Assembly (NCBI GenBank): GCA_963845755.1
Contig: CAWJTV010000011.1
Location: 512,001 to 576,000 of the forward strand
Origin: an uncultured Planctomycetota bacterium
GTDB taxonomy: Bacteria > Planctomycetota > Planctomycetia > Isosphaerales > Isosphaeraceae
Direction: 5' to 3'
Length of the DNA: 64,000 nucleotides
Positions 12,215 to 59,696 of this stretch are shown here, piece after piece (position 1 is the first letter of the stretch; the number at the start of each line of letters is the position of its first letter). Below the pieces are notes generated by a model, which saw nothing but the letters and a program-made list of their open reading frames with translations, ran no database searches and was not told the origin of the DNA. A program made the translations under genes and the position numbers.

Positions 12215-13449
12215 GTGTATCGAGACGTATTGGCCATCGTCCTGGCCGGGGGTCGGGGATCGCGCCTGGAGCCGCTCACTCGAGACCGAGCCAAGCCGGC
12301 GGTCCCGTTCGGCGGCATCTACCGGATCATCGACTTCACGCTCTCGAACTGCATCAATTCCGACCTGCGCAAGATCCTGGTGCTGACGCAGTACAAGGCG
12401 ACCAGCCTGAACCGGCACATCGACCAGGGGTGGAAGTTCCTCTGCCGCGAGCTGGGCGAGTACATCGAGGTGATCCCGCCGCAGCAGCGGATCGCCGAGA
12501 TGTGGTACCAGGGGACGGCCGACGCGATCTATCAGAATGTGTACACGATCGAGAAGGCGGCGCCCCGGGACACGATGATCCTGGCGGGCGACCACATCTA
12601 CAAGATGAACTACGCGCGGATGATCGATGAACACCGCGCGAAGCAGGCCGACCTGACGATCGCCTGCCTGCCGGTCGCGCGGGCCGAGGCGCGGGAGTTC
12701 GGCGTCATGGGGGTCGACGACGAGAACCAGGTGATGAGCTTCCTGGAGAAGCCGAAGGACCCGCCGGCGATGCCCGGCCACCCCGAGCTGGCGCTGGCCT
12801 CGATGGGGATCTACGTCTTCAACACGGACGTGATGTACGAGCTGCTGTTCCAGGACGCGGCGCGGAAGGAGGCGAGCAACCACGACTTCGGCCGCGACAT
12901 CATCCCGGCCATGCTCGCGGGTGGCTCGCGGGTGATCGCCTATCCGTTCCGCGACGAGAACCGCAAGGGGGGACCGCGTACTGGCGCGATGTCGGCACCC
13001 TGGACGCCTATTTCCAGACCACCATGGACCTGATCCAGATCGACCCGATCTTGAACCTCTACGACCAGGAGTGGCCGATCCACACGTATCAGCCGCCGTA
13101 CCCGCCTCCGAAGTTCGTCCACACCGAGGGCGACCGGCGCGGCGCGGCGTACAATTCGATCGTCTGCCAGGGGGCGATCATCTCGGGAGGCCAGGTCTAC
13201 CGCAGCATCGTCTCGCCGGACGTGCGGGTCCACAGCTACGCCCTGGTCGAGGACGCCATCCTGCTCGACGGGGTCGTGATCGGCCGCAGTGCCCGGGTCC
13301 GCCGCGCCATCATCGACAAGGACGTCCGCGTGCCGGCCCACTTCGAGATCGGCTGGAACCGCGACACCGACGAGGCCCGCGGCTTCATCGTCTCCGATGA
13401 GGGCATCACCGTCGTCGCCAAGGGGGAAGACCTGGAGCGGTTCGGGTGA
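12215..13449 (+). CDS. glgC: Glucose-1-phosphate adenylyltransferase (one frameshift near 12970)
   Basis: LAGGRGSRLEPLTRDRAKPAVPFGGIYRIIDFTLSNCINS, WYQGTADAIYQN, ILAGDHIYKMNY, ASMGIYVF. Confidence 0.97.
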
Positions 13450-13551
13450 GGGCCATTCCGCTCGGATTCTGGTAAAATCGTGACGGGGGCCGAGTGTCCG
13501 TGGACCACCGGATCGCGTCGCTCCCGATGCCCTGTTTCCGGGAGATCCGCC

Positions 13552-13815
13552 ATGTCTGGGACCGTGAGCAAACAAACAATCTTCGATGCCTTGCATCAGG
13601 TCTCGCCGGACCGATGGGGCGACGTATTGGCGTTCATCGAGTCTCTGCGAGCGGTGAACGAACCCGCCCGGGAACCGGAGAAGTGCGCCTTGACGGCCTC
13701 CGAACTCCTCGCGTCCGGCCTGGTCGGGCTTTGGTCCGATCGAACGGACATCGCCGATAGCCGGGAATTCGCCCGCCGGTTGCGACAGCAGGCCCAGACC
13801 CGGAGCCGCGGATGA
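13552..13815 (+). CDS. Putative antitoxin
   Basis: Small ORF overlapping the PIN toxin start (ATGA); 'ASGLVGLWSDRTDIADSREFARRLR' C-terminus. Confidence 0.7.
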   Translation: MSGTVSKQTIFDALHQVSPDRWGDVLAFIESLRAVNEPAREPEKCALTASELLASGLVGLWSDRTDIADSREFARRLRQQAQTRSRG

Positions 13816-14189
13816 TTCTGCTGGATACCGATGTCGCAATCGACATCCTTCGCGGTTTTCCACCGGCCGTGGCGTGGCTCCAGGGGCTCGGCACCTCGGT
13901 CCTCGGCATGCCGGGATTGGTCGTGATGGAACTCGTTCAAGGTTGCCAGAACAAGGCCGAACAACTGCGGGTCGAGCAATTCTGCCTACCGCATCCCCTA
14001 CTCTGGCCCACCCACGCCGACTGTCAGCGCGGCCTGGCGGACTACGTGGCCTTCCACCTGAGTCACGGTGTTGGCCTGCTCGATGTCCTGATTGGTCACA
14101 CAGCGGTCGGCCTGAACGAACCGCTGGCGACCTTCAACGTCAAGCACTACCAGATCATCACGGGGCTGAAGACGGTCCAACCGTATTGA
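13812..14189 (+). CDS. VapC/PIN-domain toxin
   Basis: MILLDTDVAIDILRG...ELVQG...DVLIGHTA...LATFNVKHY PIN pattern. Confidence 0.9.
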   Translation: MILLDTDVAIDILRGFPPAVAWLQGLGTSVLGMPGLVVMELVQGCQNKAEQLRVEQFCLPHPLLWPTHADCQRGLADYVAFHLSHGVGLLDVLIGHTAVGLNEPLATFNVKHYQIITGLKTVQPY

Positions 14190-14228
14190 GGTCGGGGCTA
14201 TCGACGACAGCGCCGCTTCACCGAGGGT

Positions 14229-14261
14229 GGCATCACCGTCGTCGCCAAGGGGAAGACCTGG
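14229..14261 (+). repeat. Direct repeat of the glgC 3' end (13402..13435)
   Basis: GGCATCACCGTCGTCGCCAAGGGG(G)AAGACCTGG in both places, differing by one G in a homopolymer. Confidence 0.9.
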
Positions 14262-14321
14262 TCGACCCGCGGACCGCCGAAGCTCTTGAGAGCGAACAGT
14301 TCGCCGAGAGTCTCGTCGATT

Positions 14322-14918
14322 CTATCGGTCGAAAACTCGGGGTTCAACCGGATGCGATGAGGAAATCCCGCCCTCGGCCCCCGCGGCGGCTTCGAGACGA
14401 TGGCGGTAATGCTCCAGGCCGGGGACGGCCAGGCCGGGCACCTTGGCCGTATCGTCCCAGTGCCGCAGGCGCACGGCGTCGCGATAATACGGGTTGGCCT
14501 CGAATTGCGCGCGCTCCTCGGCCTTCATGGGACCGCCCTGCACGTCGAGGCTGAGGCGCGAGGCGGGCGAGAGGCCCTCGAGGTAGGAGGGATCGACGGC
14601 GCAGAGATATCGCTTGGCGGCGACGTGCAGCCGGATCGGCGCCGTGACCGCGGCCCCGAAGTGCCGGGCCAGCCAGGCGCCGCCGGCCTCCTCGTGGCGA
14701 CCGTCGACCCCGCGCTCGGCGAGGTCCTCGTCCTGGCCGTCCAGCAGGTGCCCCACGTCGTGCAACAACGCCGCCACGATCAAGCGGTCCGGAGCACCTT
14801 CCCGGTCGGCCAGGTCGGCGGCCTGCAGCGCGTGCTCGGCCTGCGACACGGCCTCACCGTGATACGCCGACGCACCCCGGCGGGCGAATAATTCCAGGAT
14901 CTCCTCGACGATATTCAT
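14322..14918 (-). CDS. HD-domain protein, phosphonate-degradation (PhnZ-like) type
   Basis: YHGEAVSQAEHALQAA, AALLHDVGH, HEEAG, LHVAAKRYL, SPASRLSLDVQGGPM, LRHWDDTAK. Confidence 0.85.
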   Translation of the reverse strand: MNIVEEILELFARRGASAYHGEAVSQAEHALQAADLADREGAPDRLIVAALLHDVGHLLDGQDEDLAERGVDGRHEEAGGAWLARHFGAAVTAPIRLHVAAKRYLCAVDPSYLEGLSPASRLSLDVQGGPMKAEERAQFEANPYYRDAVRLRHWDDTAKVPGLAVPGLEHYRHRLEAAAGAEGGISSSHPVEPRVFDR

Positions 14919-14935
14919 TAGTAATATCCTAAATT

Positions 14936-17671: not shown

Positions 17672-17772
17672 GGTGTGTACTCCTATTAGATGAGGGTTCG
17701 ATGCCGGAATTGAGGATGCGGGCACCCGAATGTGGCCACATCGGATCGACGGAGTTGATGGATCGAGTCGCG

Positions 17773-23355: not shown

Positions 23356-23356
23356 A

Positions 23357-24750: not shown

Positions 24751-27700
24751 ATGACTGACCTGTCCGCCATCGAGTCGATCTTCCTGGCCGCCCTGGAGCG
24801 GCCGACGCCCGAGGCCCGGTCCTCATACCTGGACGCCGCCTGCCTCGATCCCGGAAATCCGCCGGCACGTCGAGCGACTGCTCAATGCGCATCCCAAGGT
24901 CGGCAGCTTCCTCAATGCCACCGCCGAGGCCGGGGACCGCACCGACGATTATGCGCCGATTTCCGAGGGGCCCGGCACCCTGGTCGGCCCGTACAAGCTG
25001 ATGGAGCAGATCGGCGAGGGGGGCATGGGCCTGGTGTTCGTCGCCGAGCAGCAGCAGCCCGTCCGCCGCAAGGTTGCGCTCAAGATCATCAAGCCGGGGA
25101 TGGATACCCGGGACGTGATCGCCCGGTTCGAGGCCGAGCGCCAGGCCCTGGCCCTGATGGACCACCCCAACATCGCCCGCGTCCTCGATGCCGGTAAGAC
25201 CGAGAGCGGCCTGCCCTACTTCGTGATGGAGCTGGTCAAGGGGATGCCCATCATCGAATATTGCGACGTCCACCAGCTCGCTCCCCGAGACCGCCTGAAG
25301 CTGTTCGTCAACGTCTGCCAGGCGGTCCAGCACGCCCACTCCAAGGGCGTCATCCACCGCGACCTGAAGCCGTCGAACATCCTGGTGGCCCCCCACGACG
25401 GCGTGCCGGTGGTCAAGGTGATCGACTTCGGCGTCGCCAAGGCCGTCGGCCAGCAGCTCACCGACAAGACGATCTACACCCGCCTCCAGCAGATGATCGG
25501 CACGCCGCTGTACATGAGCCCCGAGCAGGCCGAGATCAACGCGCTGGACGTCAACATCCGCAGCGACGTCTACAGCCTCGGCGTGCTCCTGTACGAGTTG
25601 CTCACCGGCACGACGCCGTTCGACCGCCAGCGGTTCGCCACCGCGGCGTACGACGAGATCCGCCGGATCATCAAGGAAGAGGAGCCGCCGAAGCCCAGCA
25701 CGCGGCTCAGCACCCTCGGAGAGGCGCTTTCGCACCGTGTCGATGCGACGGAAGACCGAGCCGGCGAAACTCTCGGCCCTGGTGCGAGGCGACCTGGACT
25801 GGATCGTGATGAAGGCGCTCGAGAAGGACCGGTCGCGGCGGTACGAGACGGCCAGCGGGATGGCCAGAGACGTCGAGCGTTACCTGGCCGACGAAGCGGT
25901 CGAAGCCTGTCCCCCTTCGGCTTTGTACCGGTTGAAGAAGTTTGCCCGCAAGCACCGGGCCGCCCTGGCGACGGCCTCGGCGATCGCCGCCGTGCTGGTC
26001 CTGGGGATCATCGTGAGCGCCTGGCAAGCGGTCCGGGCCAGGCAGGCCGAGCGGATCGCTCGCGTGGAACGCGATCGAGCTGTCGTCGCGGAACGTGTCG
26101 CCGAGGTTTCTCGGCAGGAGACGGAGGCCAAACGGCAAGAGGCCGAGTCAGCCCGGCAATCGCTGCGGCGATCGCTCTACGTCTCGGACATCCAACGGGC
26201 GCAGGCGGCCTGGGACAGCGGCAACCGCGACGTGATGTGCGACCTCCTGGAACAGCAACGGCCGGGATCGGGCGATGACGACCTGCGCGGATTCGAGTGG
26301 CGTTACCTTCGAAGATTGGGCTCGACCCTCCGTGTGGTCGAATTGTCCGATCGTCTGAAACTTGGGACGATGAGCCGCGACGGGACTCGTTACGTCGCCA
26401 CCGCATATTCGCAATTGAAGAAGGGACCGCCCGACGCGTATGAACTCGAGCTCAGGCTGGCGGATGGTCTGAGCGGCAAAGAAGTGCGCAGGATCGATCC
26501 CTACCCTGGCGAGATCCAGACCATTGGCATCCCTTCGATCCAGTTTAGCCCCAACGGCCATCGCTTCGTCCACCGTTCGCAAGCCCGCGACGCGTCGGGT
26601 CGTCCGGTCAAATGGCGTGTCAAGGTCTGGGATTGGTTGACCGGTCGCGAGGTGTTTGCGCGCTCCGACCTCACCGGAGTGGTCTCGATGCCGGCGTTCG
26701 ACCCCTCGGCGACCCGGTTGGCAACGGGGATCGCCCGGCCCAGGGATCAAGCCGGTGGCGACTTGATCATCTGGGACATCGATGGCGGAAAACAGCTCCT
26801 GGCGATCCCGTTACCGGACCGCCAGTTCGGTGACTGGTCCTCGATCACATTCAGTCCGGATGGGACACGCATCGCCGCCGTGTTGCTGCCCGCCAGACTC
26901 CTATGCCGCCGACGCTCCGCGCGAGCTCCGGGCCTGGGACGCCGCCACGGGCAAGGAGTTGTTCCGCCACGATACGGGCCCCGGGGCGACCGCCCTGGCC
27001 TATAGTCCCGACGGGCGAACCCTGGCGGTCTCCGGCGACGGCGGGCCAATGCATCGGATCCGGGATGCCGGCTCGGGCAAGGAGATCCTCAAACTCACCA
27101 TGGGGGAGGAGGGCCTGATAAACTGAACGGCTCGACCCGATCGCCTTCAGTCCCGACGGAACCGCGCGTGGCCGGCACGGTCTGAGGACGGGAAAGTGCG
27201 GATCTGGGACGTGACCCCGGATGAGACCAGGGCGAGCCGATCGCCGGATCTGATCCTGAAAGGGAACAACGGACCAGGGTTTCGGATGTGGCCTGGAGCA
27301 CCCATGGCCAGTTCGTCTCGGCCACGGCCCAGGGCCGCAAGATCCTGACCTGGGAGGTCCTGGCCCAGGACGAGCACCTCACGATCAAGGGGACTGACGA
27401 GACGACCCGGGTTGGGCCGACCTCGACGGCGAGTGCGAATCGGTTCGCCGCCGCCTTCGGGACGGCGAGGGCCCGGGAAGACCGAGATCAAGGTCTGGAA
27501 TCAGGCGGGTCAGGTGCTGTTCCAGACGACCGAACCCGCCCCGGACGGTCCCAGGAACAGAGAGAGTGTTCGAGCGGTCAAGCTCAGTCGCGACGGCACC
27601 CGACTGGCGTACCGCGCGAATTATGACTGGTTCGAGCCGATGGGACGAAAAAAGCGGTCAGCTCAGGTCCGGGTCTGGGACATCGCGACAGGTCGAAGCG

Positions 27701-28489
27701 TGTTCCATCGCGACCGCGAGGATAACTATGCCCTCGACGTCTAGCATCTGGTTCGACGACGTTGCCCTCAGTTCCGATGGACGGCTTCTGGCGACGATTG
27801 CGGCCAGAGGATCCTTATCGGCGTCAAAGTCATTGCTTTCCGTCCGAGAGCTCGATTCGGGCGAAGAGCGCCTCCATCGAGATCTGGATGGGGAAATCCA
27901 TGTACAAGATCGTCTTCAGCCCCGACGGCCGCCGGGTCGCGGGCAACATCTGGCTTCGATCCAGGGAGTCTCTGGCTACTGAGCTTCGAGTCTGGGATGT
28001 CGCGACGGGCCAGGTGGTCCTGAGCCGTAAATGGGACGAGAGCCCTCCCCACGAGCCGTCCTATAGCGGAGACGGCCGATGGTTGGCATTGCCATTGGCG
28101 AAGAGAGACGGTGGCAGTGTGATCAAGGTTCTCGACGCCGCCAGCGGCGAGGAGCGTCACTCGCTCACGGGTCATGGCTTTCCGATCTTGGGGGTGACTT
28201 TCAGCCCCGACAGTCGGCGACTTGCCTCCTTCGACATCTCACGGACCCAGTACTTCCGACGTCAAGCTCTGGGACCTCGCTATGGGGAAGGAACTGCTGA
28301 CCTTCTCGACAAAAGCGCTCGAGCCATCTTCTTCGAGGGGGCCGCATGTTTGTTCCGACGAGGAGCCTCTCGTTCAGTCCGGACGGCAACCGCCTGTCCT
28401 ACGTCGTCGGGAGCCATGGTCGCGAAGCCAGGGTGCAGTTCTGGGACGCCACCCCGATGCCGGACGAGAAGGCCGAAGCCTCGCGATGA
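24751..28489 (+). CDS. Ser/Thr protein kinase 1 with TM segment and WD40 repeats (multiple frameshifts)
   Basis: [28 protein letters not shown]; hydrophobic [29 protein letters not shown] repeats. Confidence 0.9.
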
Positions 28490-28595
28490 CTACCCTGAAG
28501 CGGCCCGGTGGATTACCCTGGATGTCGACGTCCCGTGCTCTAGTGTCGATCCACGGCCGCGACGCCCTGGGATTGGTCCGGAACGGCCTCCACCG

Positions 28596-29168
28596 ATGAA
28601 CGAAGTGACGCGGATCCTCGAAGCGATCGACCAGGGCGAGCCCGGCGCCGCCGATCGGCTCTTGCCGCTGGTCTACGACGAACTGCGCAAGCTGGCCGCC
28701 GCGCGGCTGGCGCGAGAAAAGCCCGGGCAGACCCTTCAGGCGACGGCCCTGGTCCACGAAGCCTACCTGCGCCTGGTGGGTGGTGACGATGCCAAGCCGT
28801 GGAACAGCCGCGGCCACTTCTTCGGCGCGGCGGCCGAGGCCATGCGGCGCATCCTCGTCGAGAACGCCCGGCGCAAGGCGCGCATCCGCCACGCTGGCGG
28901 CCTGAATCGGATCGACCTGGACCGGATCGACCTCGCCGCGGACGAGGCATCGGACGAATTGCTCGCGCTCAACGACGCCCTGGACCGTCTGGCCGAGGAG
29001 GAGCCAACCGTCGCCGAAGTGGTCAAGGTCCGGCACTTCGCCGGGTTGACGATCGAGCAAGCCGCCGCGGCGCTGGGCATCTCGGTGCGCACCGCCAACC
29101 GCCACTGGGCCTATGCCCGTGCGTGGCTCTATCAGCAGTTGAATCCTCCCGACGGAACGACGGATTGA
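28596..29168 (+). CDS. ECF sigma factor 2, TIGR02999/ECF43-like
   Basis: MNEVTRILEAIDQGEPGAADRLLPLVYDELRKLAAARLAREKPGQTLQATALVHEAYLRL. Confidence 0.94.
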   Translation: MNEVTRILEAIDQGEPGAADRLLPLVYDELRKLAAARLAREKPGQTLQATALVHEAYLRLVGGDDAKPWNSRGHFFGAAAEAMRRILVENARRKARIRHAGGLNRIDLDRIDLAADEASDELLALNDALDRLAEEEPTVAEVVKVRHFAGLTIEQAAAALGISVRTANRHWAYARAWLYQQLNPPDGTTD

Positions 29169-29370
29169 GAGACTGTCTCGGAAGGTCTTTGTAGGGTGCT
29201 CTGTGAGCACCGATCTGGCGGACTGGGCCGAATTCGGTGCTCACAGAGCACCGATCCGGCGGACTGGGCCGAACTCGGTGCTCACAGAGCACCGATCTGG
29301 CGGACTGGGCCGAATTCGGTGCTCACAGAGCACCCTACGAGACGGCCGTTGAGGCTTCCGGGACAGACTC
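29169..29370. mobile_element. MITE-like element B containing a GTAG-type REP doublet and three 41-bp tandem units
   Basis: TGA | GAGACTGTCTCGGAAG ... CTTCCGGGACAGACTC | TGA; inner GTAGGGTGCTCTGTGAGCACC (29191..29211) inverted with 29318..29338; 41-bp units start at 29205, 29246 and 29287. Confidence 0.82.
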
Positions 29371-32400: not shown

Positions 32401-33227
32401 ACATCGTTACAGGTCGAAGCATATTCCATCGCGACCGCGAAGAGATCATTGCCCGCGACCTGGATCTCAATTCCGACGTCGTTGCCCTCAGTTCCGATGG
32501 ACGGCTTCTGGCGACGGTTGCGGCCAGAGGGCCCTTATCGTCGGCAAGTTCAACGCTTTCCGTCTGGGAGCTCGATTCGGGCGAAGAGCGCCTCCATCGA
32601 GATCTGGATGGGGTCTTCCTGCAAACGATCGTCTTCAGCCCCGACGGCCGCCGAGTCGCGGGCACATTCTGGCCTCAACCCGGGGTGCCTCAGGCTTCTG
32701 GGCTTCTTCGAGCCTGGGATGTCGCGACGGGCCAGGTGGTCCTGAGCCGTAAATGGGACGAGCACTCTGCCGGCGAGCCCTCCTATAGTGGAGACGGCCG
32801 ATGGTTGGCATTGCCATTGAGGAAGAGAGACGGTGGCGGTGTGATCAAGGTCCTCGAGGCCGCCAGCGGCGAGGAGCGTCACTCGCTCACCAGTCATGGC
32901 TTTGGGTTCGGGAGGGTGACCTTCAGCCCCGACAGTCGGCGACTTGCCTCCTTCGACATCTCACAGGTCTTTGCTTTCCATCCGTCCGACGTCAAGCTCT
33001 GGGACCTCGCCGTGGGGAAGGAACTGCTGACCTTCTCGACGAAAGCGATCGAGCAACCTTCTCTGGAAAGGGCGATGTCTTTTCCGGCAAGGAGCCTCTC
33101 GTTCAGTCCGGACGGCAACCGCCTGTTCTACGTCGTCGGCAGCTATGGTCGCGAAGCCACGGTGCATGTTTGGGACGCCACCCCGCTGCCGGACGAGAAG
33201 GCCGAAGCCTCGCCACGACTACCCTGA
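29459..33227 (+). CDS. Ser/Thr protein kinase 2 with TM segment and WD40 repeats (frameshift near 29700)
   Basis: Complete Hanks kinase motifs, TM segment [16 protein letters not shown], long WD40 array. Confidence 0.93.
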
Positions 33228-33324
33228 AGCGACCCGGTGGATTACCCTGGATGTCGACGCTCCGTGCTCTGGTGTCGATCCATGGCCGCGGCGCCCTTGG
33301 GTTGGTCCGGAACGGCCTCCACCG

Positions 33325-33897
33325 ATGAACGAAGTGACGCGGATCCTCGAAGCGATCGACCAGGGCGAGCCCGGCGCCGCCGATCGGCTCTTGCCGCTGG
33401 TCTACGATGAACTGCGCAAGCTGGCCGCCACGCGTCTCGCCCGGGAAAAACCCGGCCAGACGCTCCAGGCGACGGCCCTGGTCCACGAAGCCTATCTGCG
33501 CCTGGTGGCTGGTGACGACCCGAAGCCGTGGAACAGTCGCGGTCACTTCTTTGGCGCGGCGGCCGAGGCCATGCGGCGGATCCTCGTCGAGAACGCCAGG
33601 CGAAAACGGCGCGTAAAGCACGGTGGTGCTCAGCATCGGGTCGATCTGAACGAGGCCGTCCTCTCGACTGACGGTCCGGCGGAAGAGCTGCTGGCCGTCG
33701 ACGAGGCGCTCGAGCGCCTCGCCGTCGAGGAACCGCAGGCTGCCGAGCTGGTCAAGCTGCATTACTTCGCCGGGCTGACCGTCGAGGAAGCGGCCGAAGT
33801 GCTTGGCGTATCGGCCAGAAAAGGCTATCGGATCTGGGCTTACGCGAGAGCCTGGCTCTTCCGCTACCTGGGTAGTGAGCAAGCGTGTGGAGACTAA
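33325..33897 (+). CDS. ECF sigma factor 3, TIGR02999/ECF43-like
   Basis: N-terminal half nearly identical to ECF2; LVKLHYFAGLT...WAYARAWL. Confidence 0.94.
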   Translation: MNEVTRILEAIDQGEPGAADRLLPLVYDELRKLAATRLAREKPGQTLQATALVHEAYLRLVAGDDPKPWNSRGHFFGAAAEAMRRILVENARRKRRVKHGGAQHRVDLNEAVLSTDGPAEELLAVDEALERLAVEEPQAAELVKLHYFAGLTVEEAAEVLGVSARKGYRIWAYARAWLFRYLGSEQACGD

Positions 33898-33989
33898 ATC
33901 CCGAAAACTCGGCTGACGTGGCAGTGATTCGTTCGGGATGTCGCACTGGGTTGGTGAGGTCATCAGAATCCCCTTGGGAGGACCAGACG

Positions 33990-36900
33990 ATGAATGCCAC
34001 CAGCCCCGATGTGAAATCGATCTTCGGCCGGGCCCTGGAGATGGAATCCGCGGCCGAGCGGTCCGCCTTCCTGAGCGCGGCCTGCGCGGCGGACCCCGCG
34101 CTCTGCGCAGAGGTCGAAGACCTGCTCCGCGCCATGGAGGGCGCCGGCGATTTCATGAACCGGCCGGCGGCGACGGGCTCGGTCACGATCGCCCATGCCC
34201 CGATCCTGGAAGGCCCCGGTACGAGGATCGGCCCGTACAAGCTCTTGCAGCAGATCGGCGAGGGGGGCATGGGTGTCGTCTACATGGCCGAGCAGGAGAC
34301 GCCCGTCCGGCGCAAGGTGGCGCTCAAGATCATCAAACCGGGGATGGACAGCGCCCAGGTCGTCGCCCGGTTCGAAGCCGAGCGCCAGGCGCTGGCCGTG
34401 ATGGACCACACCCACATCGCCAGGGTCTTCGACGCCGGCACCACCGAGACCGGCGCCCGTACTTCGTCATGGAGCTGGTCCATGGTGTACCGATCACCAA
34501 GTTCTGCGACGATGCCCAGCTCACACCACGCGAGCGCCTCGAGCTGTTCGTACCGGTCTGCCAGGCGATCCAGCACGCGCACCAGAAGGGGATCATCCAC
34601 CGCGACATCAAGCCGTCGAATGTGCTCGTGACGATGTACGACGACCGGCCGGTGCCCAAGGTGATCGACTTCGGCGTGGCCAAGGCGATCGAGCAAAGAC
34701 TGACCGAGCGGACGCTGTTCACCCAGTTCGGCGCCCTGGTCGGCACGTTCGAGTACATGAGCCCCGAACAGGCCGAGATGAACGCCTTCGGCGTCGATAC
34801 ACGGAGCGACATCTATTCGCTGGGGGTGTTGCTCTACGAGCTGCTGACCGGCACGACGCCGCTGGAGAAGCAACGGCTGCGCGAGGCGGCCCTTGGTGAG
34901 ATGGTGCGGCTGATCAAGGAGGAGGAGCCGCCGCGTCCGAGCGTGCGGCTGAGCAGTTCCGGCGACCTGCCCAAGATCGCCGCGGCGCGGAAGACGGAAC
35001 CAGCGCGACTGTCCAAGCTGGTGCGCGGCGAAGTCGACTGGATCGTGATGAAGTGCCTGGAAAAGGACCGGACGCGACGGTACGAGACCGCCAGCGGGCT
35101 GGCCAAGGACGTCGAGCACTACCTGCACGACGAGTCGGTGGAGGCATGCCCGCCGTCGGCCGGCTACCGGCTCCAGAAGTTCGCGCGCAAGAACAAGCGG
35201 TGGCTGGCGACCGCGACGGTCATCGCCGTGCTGCTGGCGCTCAGTGCGGCCGATGGCGCCTGGCTGCTCCTGCGCACCGCGCGGGCCGAGCGTCAAGCGA
35301 TGGAGGCCCTCAAGCGGGCGATGCAAGAGGCCGCCAACGCCGCCCAGGCCCAGAAGGACGCCTTGCGTCAGAGGGACCTGGCCACGGCCCAGCGTCAAAC
35401 GGCCGAGGACGCGAGGCAATCGGTGCGGCGGTCGCTGTACGCCTCGGACATGCAACTGGCCGAGGAAGCCTGGGAGTCGGGCGATATCCCTCGAATGCGC
35501 GACCTGCTGGAGGAACATCGGCCGCGGCCGGGCACGCCCGACCTGCGCGGCTTCGAGTGGCATTACCTGCGCGGGCTGGGCACGACCGTCCACATCGCCA
35601 AGCTGGCCCAGGACTCGACCTTCGGACAGCTCAGTCTCGATGGAACGCACTACGTCTACGTGGGCATGCTCTTCCCGCATCATGAGCCGGATGCGGGCAA
35701 GAAGCTCGAGCTGAAGCTGGTGGATGTCACCTCGGGCCGGACGGTGCGCCAGATCGTCCCCTTCCCGGACGAGACGATGAGCAACGTCCATGTTCCGCTC
35801 ACGTTCAGCCCCGACGGCAAGCGTTTCCTCGCCATGATGCGCGTCACCGACAAGTCGGGCCGCAGCGCTTGGCGGATCAAGGTCTTCGATTGGGAGACCG
35901 GTCGCGACATGTGCACGCTCGCCGATCTCGGCGGAGTGCCGGGCGCCGCGGCCTTCGACCATTCGGGCGGGAGGCTGGCCGTGGTGACCCTCCGGCAGGA
36001 GGGCCAGGCGGGTAGCGACCTGAGGATCTGGGATCTCGCCAGCGGCCGGCAACGCCTGGCGATTGCCTTGCCGGGCCGGCACATCGTACACCTCCATTCG
36101 GTGGCGTTCAGCCCCGATGGAACCCGCCTCGCGACGCTGACGAAGCCGGTCGGCCCCGAAGCCTCTCGGTCCGCGGGCGAAGTCCGCGCCTGGGACGCCG
36201 CTTCGGGTGCGGAGTGGCTGCGTTTCGAGACCGGGCCGGCCTCGGCCGGCCTGGCGTATAGCCCCGACGGCAAGTGGCTGGCGGAAATCAGCGTCGGCGG
36301 GGCCTCGCACCGGCTACGAGATGCCGGATCGGGGAAGGAGGTCCTCGAGCTCACCACGGCCCCGAGCGCCGGGATCTCCTTTTCGGTCGCCTTCAGCCCC
36401 GACGGCTCGCGGCTGGCCGTCAGTTCGCAGGATAGCAAGGTGCGGATCTGGAACGTCACGGACGTCGAGACCGGAGGCGGCCGCGCTGCCGACCGCATCC
36501 TGGATGGAAAGATCACGTTGCTGGACCACGTGGCCTGGAGTGCCGACGGCCGGCAGGTGTTCGCGTCCAGTGACAATGGCGCGGTCATGTCGTGGCCGGT
36601 CACCGCGCGCAGCCGCAAGTCGCGGTGAGGGGGTCGGGCCCGACCGAGCGGGTTACGGCGACCGCGGCCGCCGCCAACTCGCGGTTCGCTGCCGCGTTCG
36701 AAGCTCCCGGCGGGATGACCGTCCTGAAGGTCTGGGATGAGGCCGGCCATGTCCGTTTCACGACGGATGTCGCCTCGGCGGGCTACGGCTCGCCTCTCAT
36801 GGACCCCAAGAAGGTCGTGCTCAGCCGCGACGGTAGCCGTGTGGCCTACCACGGCTGGGATCCGCGCCAGGCGGACGGGCCGCCGAAGAAGATCGGCCGG

Positions 36901-37716
36901 CTGCGCGTCTGGGACGTCGCAACGGGCCGAGAGGTGTTCCACCGCGAGGGCGAACTCGAGAGGGGCCTCTTGTATCACGCGGCCTTCAGTCCCGACGGGC
37001 GACGGCTGGCCACGTCATGGAACGTGTGGAAAGACTCCCAGCCGGAGCGAAAGCACTGGGAGTTCCAGGTCTCGATCTGGGACATCGAGACGGGCCAAGA
37101 ACGGTTGCACCTGGATCTGCCGTTGCCGACGACTCTAGCGTTCAGTCCCGACGGGCGACGGCTCGCGGGCGGGCTGTCCTCTTCCTGGTCGAGCCCGGGG
37201 CGGGAGAGCGAGGTCCGGGTCTGGGACGCCGCGACGGGCGAGACGTTCCTGACCCGGAAGTTCGCGCACGGCCTGATCGACGCCGTGACCTACAACGGCG
37301 ATGGCACGTTGCTGGCTGCGGCCGTCGGCAACGTGGGCGACGCCGGAGTGATCAAGGTGCTCGACGCCGCCAGCGGCCGGGAGCGGCTGTCGTTCGCCGG
37401 TCATCGCTACATGATCTGGAAGCTGGCGTTCAGCCCCGACGGCCACCGGCTGGCCTCGCTGGCCTCGTTCCCGATGCAAGTGGCGGAGGTGAAGCTGTGG
37501 GACCTCGCCGGCGGCCGGGAGCTGTTGACCCTGAATCCGACCGGAGTCAACCTGGTCGGGAGCAACGGTTCCGGGAATAGCGGATTCGCCTTCAGCCCCG
37601 ATGGTCATCGCCTGTCTTATCTTCCCGGCGGGTCGAGGCGCGACGCCGAGGTGCAGGTCTGGGATGCCACGCCAATGCCGGACGAATCGGCCGCGGTCTC
37701 CGGTCGCCTGCGATGA
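33990..37716 (+). CDS. Ser/Thr protein kinase 3 with TM segment and WD40 repeats (frameshifts near 34455 and 36610)
   Basis: [33 protein letters not shown] linker; FSPDG repeats. Confidence 0.92.
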
Positions 37717-37808
37717 ACCACCGGCCGGAGACGTCTCGCCGCTCGATGATCTCCCGGGATAGAATGGAAGGAGAGACGATTTGCGGGTTAATGAGAGAGA
37801 CTCGATCC

Positions 37809-38107
37809 ATGAATGAGGCCACGACACTCGAACTGCCGGACGAACTCTACGAGGTCTTCCGACACCAGGCAGCCTTGATGGGAAAAACCCCGGAAGAGCT
37901 GGCGGCAGAATGGATGGCGCGCAATGGGCCGAAGCCTCGGCGACACCGGGACGATCCGGCGCACGCGCGGCTTTGGAGCAACTGCGGCGGTATGCGGGAG
38001 CGGTTGACAGCAGTAATCCCCAATCCGCCGATAACGAGGTGATCGACGCCGATCTCGCCCGAGAATCGGCCGGCCGGTGCGATTCCTCCTCCGAGGAACC
38101 GTCCTGA
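37809..38107 (+). CDS. Putative antitoxin (frameshifted)
   Basis: TLELPDELYEVFRHQAALMGKTPEELA ... ADNEVIDADLARE; TGATG overlap with the PIN gene. Confidence 0.7.
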
Positions 38108-38502
38108 TGCTCCTCGACACCTCGGGCTTGTTTTGCTACTTCGACGCCAGCGAGACGCGTCACCACGACGCCGTGACGTATTTTTACACGGCCCCGGCCC
38201 GGTTAGTGCACAGCGACGTCCTGGCCGAGTTCACCCCCTTTGCCAGGTCCGTGGCCTCGATCGAGTCAGAGCGCTGGCCTTCGTGGCGGACCTCATCGAT
38301 AACCCCGAGGTCAACATCGTCTGGGTTGACGAGTATCTCCATCGCGCCGCACTCGCGTTCCTGCAGGCGCGACCCGACAAGGCCTATTCACTTTGTGACG
38401 CTGTCAGTTTCTTGCTGATGAAGTCATGGGGAGTTCGACGAAGCCCTGACCACCGATCATCACTTCCAACAGGCCGGGTTCGTCCGACTCCTCTCCACAT
38501 AG
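38107..38502 (+). CDS. VapC/PIN-domain toxin (frameshifted)
   Basis: MLLDTSGL...HSDVLAEF...RPDKAYSLCDAVSFLLM...TTDHHFQQAGF. Confidence 0.85.
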
Positions 38503-38582
38503 GCATAGTTAACCGGCACGACATCGCGAACTCACTGGGCAGACCATTCGCGCCAATGGAGAATCCATGGGCTGATGAACGG

Positions 38583-38876
38583 CTTCAGCCCCCGACGGGC
38601 GGCGGCTGGCCTCGGTCCCCAGGCGAGCCGCGGGTGTGAATCTGTGGGACACTGCCGGAGGCCGCGAGTTGTTGACCCTGAAGACCGCCGGAATCGACCT
38701 GGTCGGGAGTAACGGCCTCAGCAATAGTGGCTTCGCATTCAGCCCCCATGGGCATCGCCTGTTTTATCTTCCCGGGGGCTCGCGCCGCGATGCCGAGGTC
38801 CAGGTCTGGGACGCCACGCCGCTGCCGGACCAGCGCGGCCGAGGACTCCGGTCCTCGCTGATGAGCCGCCGGCCGG
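38583..38876 (+). repeat. Decayed direct repeat of the kinase 3 3' end (about 37428..37728)
   Basis: [63 protein letters not shown] vs [63 protein letters not shown]. Confidence 0.92.
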
Positions 38877-39113
38877 TTACGACTCACCTCACTGCCAGGA
38901 CCGGGGCGGGATGATCGGCTGGTGATCTTCCCGAATGCGGCTGGCACGCCGTTGGCCAATCTACGGCTACCGCCGGCTGGGGGAAGGCTGTCCCCTCCAG
39001 GTCGTTTGTGCGAGAATTTGACCGGCCCGTCGCGCGACCCGGCTGGATGCCGCCGATGATGGTATGTCTCGAGATCCCGCCGATGCGCCGCGCCCCGGCC
39101 GGGAGACCCATCG

Positions 39114-50895: not shown

Positions 50896-51326
50896 ATTTG
50901 ACCTCCGGGAGTCAGGCGGGTTCTCGGATGTGCTCGCCGGTCTATCAGAGTTGGAGATGTCAGTCAACTCGAATGATCGATTCGACGCACGCGGGATTCG
51001 GGCTGGGTCCGGTCATGGGAAAGTCAATCAGGCCCCTATGGAATCTCTTCGCCCATGACCTGCACCTACGAGAGCGCGATTGCCGACCTCCTCAGGTCGA
51101 AGACGAACTCGAGAACTCGATCCTGCCCTTGCCGAATCCCTCTCGCGAGTGCTAAGATCGGAAGATTTTCGGGCCGCGCCGCCTCCAATCGTCGAGGCGA
51201 GCGCGGCCCTTTGTCGCTTCGCTCCAGTTTTCAGTGTTAAGTGTTCAGTGAGTAGACCATTTATTACCTGAGCACTTGTGCGAGAAGACTCGAAGCCAGT
51301 TCCCTTTTCCTCCGGGGCTTCTTGAC

Positions 51327-54558
<3,232 letters not shown>

Positions 54559-54601
54559 CCTGGGCATCAGTCGAGTGGGAATCGGATAAGGGGGGAATCC
54601 C

Positions 54602-55661
54602 ATGGCAACCGTCACGACCCGAGCGACGTTGGACGACCTTCTCAAGACGGATGGCAAGGCCGAACTGATCGGTGGGAGGATCGTGCACTTCATGGCAAGC
54701 GGACATCTACCTAGTGTGGTCGCGCATGACGTGCATGAGTCGCTCGACGATCTGGAGGACCTGGACCAAGCCGATCTCAAGCACACCGCAGCGTCTACTG
54801 GCTCAACAGCCACGATCCCGACTTCGACGCGAAGGCTCTGGCGATTTGCAAGCTCTACCTGGAAGCACGAGTGATGTACGAACGAGGACGGCTGCTGATC
54901 TGCTGTGACGAGAAGACGGGGATGAAGGAGTTGGGACGGACTCATCGCACGCAACCGGCTCGGCCGGGCCAGCGCGCACAGCGCGAGCAAGACTCCATCC
55001 GCGATGGGACACGGGCCTTGATCACCTCGTTGATCGTGGCCACCGGTGAAGTGATCGGCGATTTGGGACCGACCCGAACCAGTGTCGATTTCGCGGCGCA
55101 TTTGGGACACGTCGCGGGCCAGTTCCCCGAAATCTTCGGGTGTGACTGGGTCGTGGACAACCTCAACACGCATTGGAGCCTGGACGTCTGCCAGCTGATG
55201 GCGGAACTCTGCGGTGTAAAGTTGCGCTCGAGATTACTGTGAGCCTACGCGAATATGCCCGGCGAAACGGCCGCGGTGTTGCTTATGCCGACGGCATGGG
55301 ATTCGCCGTCCCTGAGCTGCCATCCGGTCGTGAATCGTTTTCTCCCGATTCTTCCTATTACGTAGGGCCTCTGCCCGCGTGCCGGATGCGGTTCGTCGAA
55401 GGCCCGCCGACCCTGGCCGTCGAGGTGCGCAGCGAAAATGACTTCGGCGACGCCGCCGAGGCCGAGATCGTCGCCAAGCGTGTCGATTACTTCTCCGCGG
55501 GCACGCTCGTCGTCTGGGACGTCGATCCCGTGGCGGAGCAGGTCCATGTCTACCGGTCCACCGATCCGGGGCATCCCACGACCTACGCCCGGGGCCAGAC
55601 GGCCGAAGCCGAGCCCGCCGTGCCGGGCTGGCGGATGGCTGTTGATGACATCTTCGCGTGA
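54602..55661 (+). pseudogene. Uma2/DUF820-family endonuclease 1, interrupted by a transposase fragment
   Basis: TLDDLLKTDGKAELIGGRIV...PSVVA | insert | LEITVSL...FSPDSSYY...PTLAVEVRSEND...LVVWDVDP. Confidence 0.85.
54726..55222 (+). mobile_element. Internal fragment of an IS630-family-like transposase, no termini seen
   Basis: MSRSTIWR..ADLK..YWLNSHDPDF..LICCDEKTGM..RDGTRALI..WVVDNLNTHWS. Confidence 0.75.
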
Positions 55662-55740
55662 GCCGGCGAAGGCCGCCGTTGCAAACGTGGAACGTCTGAG
55701 CACGGGGAAGCTCGAAGTTGATGCATTATAGGATTTGCTT
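55662..55740 (+). repeat. Decayed direct repeat of the carB 3' end (about 54466..54546)
   Basis: KAAVANVERLSTGKLEVDAL*DLL vs car[25 protein letters not shown]. Confidence 0.9.
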
Positions 55741-55886
55741 CGGGCCGATCGAGGAAAGTAGGGCCGGTTGCAACCGAGGGGTTCAGCTCGGTGCGCAGCA
55801 ATTCCCATACCTGCATGGATCGGCTCTCAACCTCGCGATCAGATCGGCATTGACCCCACACTCGCCACGCTCCGCGCGATTCACGA

Positions 55887-56497
55887 TCACAGCCCATTCG
55901 GTCCAACCGTCGCTTGCTGGGCTTCCTCCGCCGGCCCGCTCGGCGGCAGGATCTCGCGCAGCACGCATCGGAAGCCAGGAATCACGTCCTCGCCCAGCAG
56001 CTCGTCGTCCTCGAACAGGCGGCTGACCGAGCCGTCGCGGCGGTTGACGATCGCCGTGCGCGCGCCGGGATAGATCACCCAGATGATGGGCACACCCGCC
56101 TTGCGGTAGTCCGTTAACTTTTCCTCGACATCCTCGGCCAGATCATTGGGCGAAACGACTTCAACGGCCAGGTCGGGGGGGAACTTGGCCCACCCCTTCG
56201 GGAGCTTGCCGCCGGGGAGGTGCTCTTTGCGGATGAATGAGACGTCGGGCTTGCGGAGCCGGTTGGGATCATGGGGGAAGCACTGGTAGCCAGTATCGGC
56301 CGGCAACGCCCGCCCAAGTCCGTGCTGCTTGCAATGCGGTACGAGGAGAGCGAGTAGGTCTCCCCCGACTCCGCTGGATTCCAGTCCCCTCTTGCATCCA
56401 GTAGTTCCCCGTGGACCAACTCGTAGTCCACCCCATCAGGCATGGCGAGCAAGTCCTCCGGCGTGTAGCGGGACTCGGTCGCAATCGCCGTGCTCAT
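55887..56497 (-). CDS. Uma2/DUF820-family endonuclease 2 (frameshifted)
   Basis: YTPEDLLAMPDGVDYELVHGEL; RKPDVSFI; PPDLAVEVVSPND; IIWVIYP. Confidence 0.88.
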
Positions 56498-56729
56498 GAT
56501 CCACCTCCCAATCGATGACGTGAAAGGCGCTGTCGATCTCCCGAATTGTACCACCTGTCCGAAACCCTCGCGAGACCGGCCGAAACCATGTCAACCGACC
56601 CGATCACGGACGCGCGAGACCCGTCGGTCCAGAGCCCCCTGACAACCGTCCGATCTTTCGGATAGAATGTCGCGGTGCCGTCGGCGAACGAAGGACATCG
56701 CGGGAATCATCGTGTGGGGAATCCTATCC

Positions 56730-58611
56730 ATGGCACTACGGGTCGGGCCGGGGCCGGTGTTCGTTTACGAATCGCTGATCCTGGCGCGGCGGCGGCAGGT
56801 TTATGCGGGCCGGGCCCTGTTCGTCGTCCTGATGTTCCTCGGCCTGGCGGCGGCCTGGTGGAACACGGGTGTCGAATCGTTCGCGAGCACGGGGCCCGGT
56901 ACTGCGGCGCTGTTCCGGGTTCTCGCGCGCGTCGGCGAACGGTTCTTCTACAACCTGGCCGGCCTCCAGCTCGCGCTGGTGCTGCTGGCGGCGCCGGCGG
57001 CGACGGCCGGGGCGATCTGCCACGACCGCGCGGGGGATCTTCGAGCAGCTCGCCATGACCGATCTCTCCAGCGCCGAGATTGTGCTCGGCAAGCTCGGCT
57101 CGCGGTTGGCTCCGATCCTGGGACTGCTGGTCTGCGCCTTGCCGGTGACGGCGCTCGCCGCGTTGCTCGGTGGGATCGATCCGCAGGCGTTGTTCAGCCT
57201 GTTCGCCGTCTCGGTGGCCATCGCGGTCCTCGGGTGCTCGCTGGCGCTGGCGATCTCGTTGCGGGCCGCGAAGACGCATGAGGTGATCATCGCGGTGCTG
57301 GCCCTCTGGATCCTCTGGCTGCTAAGCCTACCGATCTGGTCGGGCGCGTCGAGCATCAGCGGAGTCGTGCCGCCGCCCGACTGGTTCAGGAAGGCCAATC
57401 CGGTGCTGGTGGTCTATGCGCCCTATGCCTGGCCGGGATATGTGACTCCATCCGAAGTCGCCATCTTCGTGACGGCGATGTTTCTGCTGTCGGCCGCACT
57501 GGTCGCACGGACGATCGCCACCGTGCGTCGGAGCGTGCTCGAGCCGGCCCGGAGGGCCAGCGGTCGCGCGTTCCTCGACCGCCTGAGCTTCGCGCGGTGG
57601 CTGCCGGGGCCGTCGCTCGACGGCAATCCCGTCCTCTGGCGCGAGTGGCATCGCAACCGACCGTCGCGATTGATGCGGATCATCTGGGTGATCTATGTCA
57701 TCAGCTCGGTCGCCGGACTGGGGATCGGGATTCATGAAGCGATCGTCTACGGCGTCGGCCGGGCCGCCGGCTCCTTCACGCTCGTGATTGCACTGCACCT
57801 GCAATTCCTCTTCGGCCTGATGATCGTGAGCGTCCAGGCGCCGACCTCGCTGGCCGAGGAGCGGGTACGGGGCAGCCTGGACGTCCTCTTGACGACGCCG
57901 CTGTCCACGCGATCGATCCTCTGGGGCAAGTGGCTGGGGAGCTATCGGGTCGTCCTCGGGCTGGCGCTACTCCCCGCCGTGGGCTCCGCGATCGTGGCTG
58001 TCATGGCATCTCCATCGCGCGGGATGGGCCTCGTCGATCGCATCGTGGCGCCCGGCCTGGTCGTCGGCGAGATGCTCGCCTACGGGGCGGCGATCACCAG
58101 CATGGGCCTGGCGCTGGCGACCTGGACGCGTCGGCTCGGCCGCGCGATCGCCATCAACGTGGTCATCTTCGCCCTGATGACGATCGGCTGGCTGTTCTTC
58201 ATCGATTACGTCGTCTGGCAGCCGCTCGTGAGATGGCTGACGTTGAGAGGCGTTACCGACACGCGCTGGCTCGTGGAAGGTATGATGGTCATCAGCCCCT
58301 TCTGGGCGCCGATCGGGACGCTGAACTGGCTCCTGGAGAACCGTGGGGGTCCTGCGTGGAAGTTCTGGCTGCTCGCGGCGGCGTGGTGCGCGCTGGCCTG
58401 GGCGTTTGCCGCGGCGATGTTCTGGGCGACGCTCAGGACGTTCGACCGCTGCCTGGGGCGGATGCCGGAGACGAGCGTCCCCGAGGACGGCGATCCCGCA
58501 GTCCGATTCGGCGGTCCCGAATCGGGCGATCTCGACCTTGTGGTTTCGTCGGCCGCCCCATCGCCTCGCCTTGCCGGTGCGGCCGATGGGCGTCAGTATG
58601 GCGATCGGTGA
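56730..58611 (+). CDS. ABC-2-type transporter permease-like membrane protein (frameshift near 57030)
   Basis: GPGPVFVYE; IVLGKLGSRL; LDGNPVLWREWHR; EERVRGSLDVLLTTPLSTRSILWGKW. Confidence 0.85.
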
Positions 58612-58647
58612 CACCGAGACGCCACGGGCCGAAACGCGATCGATCGT

Positions 58648-59262
58648 CTACCCTGGTCCGTTCGGCGCGGCTGGCGCGGATGAGACGGGATCGGCCGGCT
58701 TGCGTGGCGGGAGGATCTCCCGCACAAGGCAGCGGAAGCCGGGAATGACATCCTCGCCGGAGAGTTCGTCATCCTCGCCCAGTTCGCTCGGTGGGCCGTC
58801 GCGGCGGAGGACTTTGACCTTGCGCTGCTTGGGATAGATCACCCAGATCAGGGGCACGCGAACTTTTCGATAGTCATCCAGCTTTTCCTCGAGTTCCTCA
58901 ACCCGATCGTTGGGTGAGACGACCTCGACCGCGAGGTCCGGCGGAATCCTGACCCAGCCCACTGGCTCGACATCTCCAGGCAAATGGCCGCGGCGCACGA
59001 ACGAGACATCCGGCTTGCGGACGAGGCCGGGATCGTGGGGAAAGCACTGAAAGCCATTGTCGGCCGGCCAGGCCATTCCCAGGCCGTGCTCTGCACAGAA
59101 CTGGCCGAGACGCAAGAAGAGGCGCCCTCCGACTCCGCTGGATTCGGCTCCCATGTTCCTCTCCACCAGTTGTCCGCGAACCAGCTCGTAGCTCTTGCCG
59201 TCGGGCAGGGCGAGCAAGTCCTCGGGCGTGTAGCGGGTCTTGGTCGCGACGGCCGTGCTCAT
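58648..59262 (-). CDS. Uma2/DUF820-family endonuclease 3
   Basis: YTPEDLLALPDGKSYELVRGQLVE; RKPDVSFV; PPDLAVEVVSPND; close paralog of copy 2. Confidence 0.92.
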   Translation of the reverse strand: MSTAVATKTRYTPEDLLALPDGKSYELVRGQLVERNMGAESSGVGGRLFLRLGQFCAEHGLGMAWPADNGFQCFPHDPGLVRKPDVSFVRRGHLPGDVEPVGWVRIPPDLAVEVVSPNDRVEELEEKLDDYRKVRVPLIWVIYPKQRKVKVLRRDGPPSELGEDDELSGEDVIPGFRCLVREILPPRKPADPVSSAPAAPNGPG

Positions 59263-59488
59263 GGTCGGTCTCCCGATCGATGAAGCGGATCGTGGGTCGG
59301 CTCAATACCGTCGATCTCGAAGATCGACGGATCGATCACCTCCGCTTCCGACGAAGTCCGTAGACGATCGTAAACCTCGGCTTTGATGATCAGGTCAGTG
59401 CGATGCGTTTCGGGATCGAGGATCGGGACAGGCACATCGTCAGCCTCGTCGACCGCGCAGTCGGAGCTCGTGAGTGAAGATGGCCATG
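59259..59488 (-). CDS. Small hypothetical protein upstream of Uma2 copy 3 (start uncertain)
   Basis: DVPVPILDPETHRTDLIIKAEVYDRLR; overlaps the Uma2 start codon. Confidence 0.45.
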
Positions 59489-59608
59489 ATCTCTGGATAC
59501 CCATTCAGCCGGTTGTTTCCATAACGAAGATTTTACAATCGGTGCGATCGCCACGCGAGACGAGTCCCGCTCCGGCTCGTTCCGGATTTGCGCCGGGGTG
59601 CCGTCGTC

Positions 59609-59696
59609 AACCGCCACATCGCCTCGCCTTGCCGGTGCGGCCGATGGCTGTCAGAATGGCGATCGGTGACACCGAGACGCCCCGGACCGAAACGTG
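59609..59696 (+). repeat. Direct repeat of the permease 3' end and downstream flank (about 58550..58637)
   Basis: CATCGCCTCGCCTTGCCGGTGCGGCCGATGG..GTCAG.ATGGCGATCGGTGACACCGAGACGCC.CGG.CCGAAACG in both places. Confidence 0.92.

Follow-up and report, generated by a model that had tools for sequence, protein, structure and literature searches.

The window analysed here is a stretch of 64,000 nucleotides (G000:C11:512001-576000). Four of its genes, glgC, a Ser/Thr kinase gene (kinase 3), carB and an ABC permease gene, are followed by a second copy of their own 3' end, and a predicted toxin-antitoxin (TA) module or an Uma2 nuclease gene lies between the two copies. The best explanation is the insertion of cargo at gene tails with long target duplication, the joining probably being made by the host. 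A probability of about 0.6 is assigned to this reading. The repeat layout recurs elsewhere in the genome, and related genomes contain empty sites as well as the same cargo at other loci. The cassettes have no defined ends, and TA and Uma2 genes are enriched between duplicated tails.

Positions without a contig label refer to the window. G000 is the genome studied and G001 a sister genome of the same genus; the other relatives compared include G008, G012 and G015. The G000 assembly comprises 14.27 Mb in 49 contigs with 64% G+C and is 88% complete by marker genes. PSCyt, PSD1 and DUF1559, Pfam families typical of planctomycetes, were found in random regions of G000.

Tail duplications in the window

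The four pairs of gene tails and the cargo between them had been proposed in the first-pass annotation. Local alignment and repeat search confirmed all of them within a few bases, and alignment bore out that the four repeats are unrelated to each other. The repeats measure 45, 316, 78 and 94 bp for glgC, kinase 3, carB and the ABC gene, with spacers of 782, 840, 1118 and 964 bp, respectively. Each spacer holds either an Uma2 nuclease gene or a toxin module of the PIN type. When the whole 14.27-Mb genome was searched with the distal copies, the best non-self match was in every case the adjoining gene tail (E-values of 7e-9 for glgC, 3e-64 for kinase 3, 6e-8 for carB and 1e-30 for the ABC gene). 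The next-best matches had E-values of 0.005 or worse, except for weak WD40 paralog matches of kinase 3.

The copies within the window pairs are 75-90% identical, which rules out a duplication by the assembler. More generally, many apparent frameshifts and one repeat pair on another contig (C10), which ends exactly at the contig end, would speak for an assembly artefact. Against it, copies differ by 3-25%, the independent assembly G001 shows the layout with 456-bp repeats, and the empty sites align base by base. The probability of an artefact is negligible.

The ABC permease locus carries the youngest insertion of the window:

56869..58611, plus strand: ABC-2 type permease gene (PF12679, E 1e-9)
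58546..58639, plus strand: ABC repeat, proximal copy, made up of 63 nt from the end of the coding sequence, the stop codon and the following 28 nt (alignment)
58648..59262, minus strand: Uma2c nuclease gene, the cargo, missing at the G001 site (PF05685, E 5e-29)
59604..59697, plus strand: ABC repeat, distal copy, continuous with the native downstream flank (alignment)
59890..60372, plus strand: Uma2d gene, the native downstream neighbour, present in G001 and two further relatives (genome search)
55887..56554, minus strand: Uma2b gene in two frames, without bracketing repeats (Pfam and genome search)

In G001 the ABC permease gene is followed by a single copy of the 94-bp segment and then directly by Uma2d; positions 6408-6507 of G001 align with both G000 copies. 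In G001 this site is empty with base precision. Between the two G000 copies 85/94 positions are identical, and each copy agrees with the single G001 copy at 80/94. Since they are closer to each other than to G001, the event is younger than the species split. Nine differences separate the two copies, with four derived in one, four in the other and one undecided.

The tail-cargo-tail order is also exactly the outcome of a single homologous crossover, in which a circle or tandem multimer with one gene tail and the cargo integrates in the resident tail and the repeats later release the circle. At the ABC locus, however, the derived changes are interleaved along the segment and do not form two blocks. 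Hence, the pair is not a blockwise chimera of donor and recipient. Public reads were consulted for a circle junction. Seven soil or wetland runs cover parts of 57800-60400 (best share 0.22); four were examined and gave contigs of only about 150 bp. No junction was bridged with 31 letters on both sides (at two joints the sides had 20-22 letters), and these reads are too thin to show circles or empty alleles.

Four Uma2 genes lie within 5.2 kb (55173-60372) around the one ABC permease gene. In G012 and G015, a pair of Uma2c-like and Uma2d-like genes stands upstream of a UDP-glucose dehydrogenase gene, and no ABC-permease match was present in the 8-kb stretches compared.

The glgC locus has the shortest repeat:

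13024..13449, plus strand: 3' part of glgC with the hexapeptide-repeat domain, native tail and stop (PF24894, E 6e-38; five relatives match through 13443-13451)
13391..13435, plus strand: glgC repeat, proximal copy inside the gene, ending 11 nt before the stop codon (alignment)
13552..13815, plus strand: small open reading frame (ORF) overlapping the start of the PIN gene by 4 nt, presumed antitoxin from its position only (no Pfam match)
13812..14189, plus strand: PIN-domain (VapC-like) predicted toxin gene (PF01850, E 6.9e-7; also recovered in the genome-wide PIN search)
14218..14261, plus strand: distal copy of the glgC tail, abutting the remnant of a minus-strand gene (alignment)
14261..14360, minus strand: two 50-bp pieces left of a gene whose complete form is present in G001 (C13:79128-80380; comparison with relatives)

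The glgC copies are identical at 40/45 positions with one 1-nt indel. The distal copy sits exactly between the PIN cassette and the 100-bp remnant of the minus-strand gene. The next gene after the remnant in G000, an HD-domain gene, is 66 kb away from glgC in G001. This distance indicates that the site was reshaped by later deletions and is a hot spot of deletion or rearrangement. A single crossover would have left the distal copy continuous with the native downstream sequence, but such continuity is not found here.

At kinase 3 the repeat is the longest of the window:

36592..37716, plus strand: WD40 tail region of the Ser/Thr kinase 3; the kinase body, 33938-36628, is in another frame (Pfam)
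37425..37740, plus strand: kinase-3 repeat, proximal copy, with the last 292 nt including the stop and 24 nt beyond (alignment)
37713..38042, plus strand: ORF in the spacer, presumably an antitoxin (no Pfam match)
38077..38639, plus strand: PIN-domain gene over two frames, 38077-38418 and 38133-38639 (homologue search)
38581..38888, plus strand: distal copy of the kinase-3 tail (alignment)

These copies agree at 254/321 positions. A Pfam search with the ORFs of the cassette gave zero matches, even at E 5. The ORF 38133-38639 has 67 homologues, mostly proteins of 131 amino acids with a precomputed PF01850 match; the cargo is therefore regarded as a PIN gene interrupted by a frameshift. At kinase 3, G001 and G008 carry a single tail and lack the cassette.

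Kinases 1-3 are paralogs in a tandem array, in which about 4.7 kb of the WD40 Ser/Thr kinase genes is duplicated (24955-28876 and 29705-33605). Between kinases 1 and 2 (29195-29334) lie three 41-bp tandem units, each with the 17-bp palindrome GGTGCTC...GAGCACC. Such an array would suit the view that the pairs are relics of a whole-gene tandem duplication that took in the neighbour and whose second copy was later mostly deleted; the paralogs Uma2b and Uma2c, before and behind the ABC gene, would suit it as well. But the distal kinase-3 copy strongly matches only the tail of kinase 3 itself, and relatives have single tails and empty sites. A tandem duplication of an Uma2-ABC unit was considered for the ABC locus and set aside. 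Nothing is common to the regions upstream of Uma2b and Uma2c, and these two genes are only 72-79% identical compared to 90% for the ABC tails. Taken together, relics of tandem duplication are a very improbable source of the pairs.

The carB locus contains the most diverged pair:

51728..54547, plus strand: carB, carbamoyl-phosphate synthase large subunit; the N-terminal part lies upstream in another frame (Pfam)
54466-54543, plus strand: repeat of the carB 3' end, proximal copy (alignment)
54726..55220, plus strand: secondary insertion of 495 bp that interrupts Uma2a in its 5' part and weakly matches DDE_3 (IS630-type), absent from G001
55173..55661, plus strand: Uma2a nuclease gene, 5' part displaced by the secondary insertion; G001 has it intact at this position (PF05685, E 4e-18)
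55662-55737, plus strand: distal carB repeat copy, immediately after the Uma2a stop, absent from G001 (alignment)

The copies are identical at 59/78 positions. Where G000 has 229 bp, G001 has 39 bp, with neither the 495-bp piece nor the distal carB copy. Because G001 has an intact Uma2a without the distal copy, the insertion at carB is regarded as old and the spare tail as lost in one lineage. The 495-bp piece has one further copy in G000 (C29:118077-118581, 95%), and no inverted ends were seen on it.

Several genes of the window switch reading frame: glgC at 13024-13033, kinase 3 at 36592-36628, carB at 51276-51728, Uma2b at 56114-56306 and the PIN gene of the kinase-3 cassette at 38133-38418. 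The assembly is either rich in indels or holds many pseudogenes. As housekeeping genes are split over two frames, single frameshifts were not taken as decay.

Empty sites and mobility of the cargo

Clean single-copy empty sites with both flanks conserved were found for ABC/Uma2c (G001), a HicAB cassette (L026; G008 and G012) and a vapBC cassette (G015 compared to G001). The first-pass annotation had pointed to comparison with relatives as a way to recognise the ancestral tail. For glgC, kinase 3 and carB, one tail is present in the relatives, but synteny is lacking on the right flank or there is no distal copy. For the cassettes L002 and L023 and for a cassette on C32 with an MNT-type nucleotidyltransferase, no clean empty site was present in the five relatives searched.

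At the HicAB site, the flanking genes are 125 bp apart in G008 and G012, which have one copy of the target, and G015 has a related hicAB. The tail of the host gene carries a different insert of 1.77 kb in G001 (L054 1731-3502, G001:C7), with ORFs without clear family and one weak DUF5678 match. An apparent imperfect duplication of about 40 bp around this insert was visible in the alignment and missed by the repeat search; it was not counted.

The vapBC site consists of stacked duplications of one gene's 3' end. The 3' end is uninterrupted in G015 (C55). In G001 (C12; L085 2635-4662) two copies of it, 456 bp long and 97.1% identical, enclose 1116 bp that contain vapBC. The G000 site (L082, C1:278977-284433) comprises the tail at 278977-279400, a 3.4-kb insert, a second partial tail, vapBC and a third piece of 74 bp; along with the 3.4-kb insert, about 380 bp of this tail is duplicated. 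With 96% identity between G000 and G001, the vapBC unit exceeds the neighbouring genes, which reach 86-93%. Its segments are permuted and stacked, in the order C-D-A-B-C-D-A in G001 and D-A-B-C-D behind the second insert in G000. This order fits amplification or circle formation through the repeats. Both the order and the high identity favour integration of a circle by single crossover, as does the fact that the distal copies of kinase 3 and L002 are unlike young copies made in place.

For three cassettes the same cargo was found in relatives at non-orthologous loci, which shows that the cassettes are mobile. The PemK block (L023 1764-2525) occurs in G001 on C6 with 87% identity, and the orthologue of its host gene, with a single tail, is on C15. 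A DUF4160/DUF2442 block is located on C72 of G012 and the orthologue of its host gene on C57; in G015 the host gene has one copy of the target. A decayed vapBC block lies on C33 of G001. Blocks common to different genomes end about 10-100 bp short of the repeats and include no tail. This argues against integration of a circle, which needs a donor with the cargo already behind the same gene and leaves the arrival at a new gene unexplained. For spread between orthologous sites, the single-crossover circle is a possible and live alternative. As the general origin of the tail pairs it is rather unlikely.

The cassettes of G000 occur singly and at scattered places. A search for terminal inverted repeats was negative: in all 11 cassettes compared, the best inverted match from end to end stayed at or below the 95th percentile of shuffles. 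The repeats of the cassettes (30-456 bp, also outside the window) are unrelated and have no common attachment (att) core at their edges. No integrase or complete transposase was detected by Pfam in the four window cassettes. The earlier statement that the cassettes encode no recombinase stands, apart from the DDE_3 fragment in the secondary 495-bp piece at carB. The insertions share the cargo operon but not the edges, which looks like capture of fragments rather than movement of an element with defined ends.

Integrative islands and phages in tRNA genes or in the 3' ends of protein genes need an integrase and a fixed att core, and they carry a replacement end. As in the cassettes, direct repeats of a gene 3' end flank the foreign DNA and the gene stays whole. 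The cassettes could accordingly be islets without integrase, mobilised by an integrase acting in trans, with the repeats as att sites. Outside the window, a tyrosine integrase gene does adjoin DUF433/DUF5615 in one cassette (L024). In contrast to islands and phages, the cassettes of the window have no integrase, no core and no defined ends. The repeat is different at every locus, the cargo ends are ragged, and the proximal end is native where it can be judged. Action of an integrase in trans is accordingly most improbable.

Palindromic elements of about 60-90 nt that resemble repetitive extragenic palindromes (REP) were noticed at three cassette loci (L026 1426-1490, L023 3131-3221, L002 1745-1786). 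They occur at 208 distinct sites in G000 and at many in G001, G012 and G015, and RAYT-like Y1_Tnp genes are present. A REP/RAYT link to the cassettes was rejected: REP-like sites lie within 300 bp of 2/12 cassettes, and both are the source loci of the query elements, so that this finding is circular. At the PemK cassette, the distance from the host gene to the next syntenic neighbour is about 17.8 kb in G000 (C39:252128-269912) and 170 bp in G001. The tail duplication there lies at the left edge of a much larger variable region.

The native tail copy

The first-pass annotation compared the cassettes to integrative elements, which supply a replacement tail and displace the original one. For the cassettes, the results do not support this. 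In 5/5 relatives glgC matches through its last codons and stop with a single-copy tail, which identifies the proximal copy as native. At the ABC locus both copies are equally distant from the G001 copy and their changes are interleaved, and the mobile blocks are without a tail.

Furthermore, the proximal copy is closer to the orthologues than the distal copy in L023 (95% vs 85%), L002 (87.7% vs 78.9%) and carB (91.4% vs 72.2%). These values fit a selected native tail with a neutral spare, although a replacement tail that came from a very close donor would give them too. Where a judgement can be made, the sequence comparison indicates that the gene keeps its own tail and that the distal copy is probably a decaying spare.

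Genome-wide recurrence and cargo bias

Direct repeats 150-5000 bp apart were searched in the genome with 12-mer seeds, ungapped extension and a score of at least 40, giving 6454 matches in 4464 pairs. By the orphan-tail rule, one copy has to lie over a gene 3' end and the other must not be the end of a paralog; 51 candidates remained. The 27 candidates with spacers up to about 2.2 kb were annotated together with the four window loci, 31 in all. TA or Uma2 cargo was found in 9/31 spacers, and in 5/27 outside the window:

L002: RelE-like and HTH
L019: DUF4160 and DUF2442
L023: PemK
L024: DUF5615 and DUF433, adjoining the tyrosine integrase gene
L026: HicA and HicB

As control, 40 windows of 1 kb directly behind random genes were taken from 20 random 15-kb regions with the same ORF rule (116 ORFs). 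Only 1/40 had a match of the cargo type, an HTH_37 protein, and a toxin or Uma2 gene was present in 0/40. The enrichment is significant by Fisher's one-sided test (p = 0.0018; p = 0.035 without the window's own four loci). Such genes are scarce overall, with only 24 PIN and 68 Uma2 matches in 14.3 Mb. A genome-wide enrichment of such cargo between tail duplicates, named as a test in the first-pass annotation, is supported by 9/31 compared to 1/40. A block-permuted genome retains 1902/6454 matches since repeats within blocks survive, and it is not a clean null. For this reason the specificity of the pairs was based on the genome-wide search with the distal copies.

In a second scan, 98 other cassette-like repeat pairs that are not tails were examined with lower sensitivity. 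It covered 89 of the 105 called inner proteins; the 16 left out were mostly the longest ones, along with two repeats of a scanned entry, and 24 spacers had no called gene. Three more TA cassettes were identified: vapBC on C1, immediately after a stop codon, mazEF on C10, where the contig ends, and the MNT-type nucleotidyltransferase on C32. Two Uma2 genes that are tandem paralogs were also recovered. No TA cargo was found at pairs of the 5'-end type among these 98 pairs. From the list of Uma2 genes, L028 (C48) and L029 (C15) were discarded, one being a low-complexity coding repeat and the other lying among tandem Uma2 paralogs.

Across the cassettes, the cargo families are PIN, PemK, HicA/HicB, RelE with HTH, DUF4160/DUF2442 and DUF5615/DUF433. 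They are predicted type II TA systems, recognised by a toxin domain with a small overlapping partner.

Evidence weighing against the insertion model

A number of results speak against insertion accompanied by a long duplication of the target or narrow its reach. At glgC the native last codons are missing behind the distal copy, which adjoins the remnant of another gene; a simple one-step duplication of the target needs a later deletion there. The distal copy of kinase 3 is 78.5% identical to the proximal copy and 82.7% to the G001 tail. In L002 the distal copy reads '...ELEND...' like G001, whereas the proximal copy reads '...ELGSD...'. Both counter-signals are based on small numbers, with quartet counts of 5, 2 and 1. 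The right flanks at glgC, kinase 3, L002 and L023 are not syntenic, so that clean empty sites are lacking at these loci.

The genome-wide figures have limits of the same kind. Of the nine positive spacers, four come from the window, which had been selected for this feature, and 20/51 orphan-tail candidates lie outside the annotation. The gene calls are home-made (10,816 genes from a codon-usage scorer) on an assembly with many frameshifts. Repeats flank 6/68 Uma2 matches within 3.5 kb, compared to 201/3538 (5.7%) for small control genes, and 4/24 PIN matches are bracketed, two of these in tight cassettes. From these low shares it follows that most copies of the cargo have no detectable scar.

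Comparison with known systems

Insertion with long target duplication was reportedly described for restriction-modification (R-M) genes by Nobusato et al. in 2000. The survey of Furuta, Abe and Kobayashi (2010; PMC2853133) defines 'insertion with long target duplication' for R-M genes without a mobility gene. The repeats are >30 bp long (46-423 bp in the tables), and a related genome has one copy with which they align; overlap of the repeat with a gene 3' end is seen in two cases from Haemophilus. The same survey calls the mechanism unknown, suggests a link to double-strand breakage and proposes that insertion is followed, in a cycle, by amplification via the repeats and by release (PMC2853133). 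Natural competence is noted there for most of the species. In a passage of a 2013 review (PMC3874152), this type of insertion is ascribed to R-M systems only.

The cassettes resemble the R-M insertions in several respects. In both cases small selfish or addictive units without a mobility gene are flanked by direct repeats of long and variable size, 46-423 bp in the R-M survey and 30-456 bp in the cassettes, which are single copy in a relative. The repeats often lie over a gene 3' end and can support amplification. As in the survey of Furuta et al., repeats >30 bp, a single-copy empty site in a relative and an insert <20 kb without mobility genes were found. The cargo is different: type II TA pairs, of PIN type in the window, and solitary Uma2 genes stand in place of the R-M gene pair, and the host is a planctomycete-type soil bacterium with a genome of 14 Mb. 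The requirement for an R-M pair concerns the cargo chosen in that survey and not the mechanism. The suggestion of the first-pass annotation that an undescribed route is at work does not hold, since the scar is that of insertion with long target duplication. It is a known type of scar, extended here to TA and Uma2 genes as new classes of cargo. A literature search by title and beginning of the abstract, which did not cover paywalled papers, found no description of this insertion for TA genes. Among the matches listed, no account of the mobility of Uma2/DUF820 was found in titles and beginnings of abstracts.

Two further systems leave a similar layout. Insertion sequences of the IS1634/IS1549 type generate long, variable target duplications, and they have a transposase and inverted termini. 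The long variable direct repeats are shared with the cassettes, but neither a transposase nor inverted termini were found in these. The Discussion of PMC2853133 alludes to a 'transposon of Mycoplasma'. Integration of the Campbell type, that is, the single crossover of a circle, would produce exactly the layout of tail, cargo and tail and is reversible through the repeats. The circle must already hold a fragment of the target, in contrast to the tail-free blocks common to the genomes compared here.

Proposed mechanism and meaning

In the preferred model of cargo insertion with long target duplication, each insertion would copy 30 to about 450 bp of the target. The resident gene would retain its complete own end as the proximal copy, and the spare beyond the cargo, the distal copy, would decay or be trimmed. 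The joining may be carried out by host break repair or replication, with staggered breaks being filled in or templates being switched. Long direct repeats would invite precise deletion by homologous recombination. The bias in cargo could then reflect persistence, as insertions that kill or harm cells losing them, such as TA modules, may last long enough to be seen. Uma2 genes might be retained if their product provokes breaks. Gene 3' ends may be favoured because a duplication there leaves every gene whole.

A wider version would regard recombinase-free insertion with long target duplication as a general life cycle of addictive and nuclease genes (R-M, TA and Uma2) rather than an accident of repair. 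The nuclease or toxin of the cargo would provoke the entry breaks near gene ends, and the repeats would amplify the unit and release circles that seed new sites. This generalisation is improbable.

How chromosomal TA genes and the abundant, unstudied Uma2 nucleases move without the machinery of mobile elements is poorly understood. The genome offers a dozen dated examples of one route, together with empty sites and further loci that hold the same cargo. It further suggests a testable cause of the bias in cargo, namely that only addictive cargo would resist deletion through the repeats.

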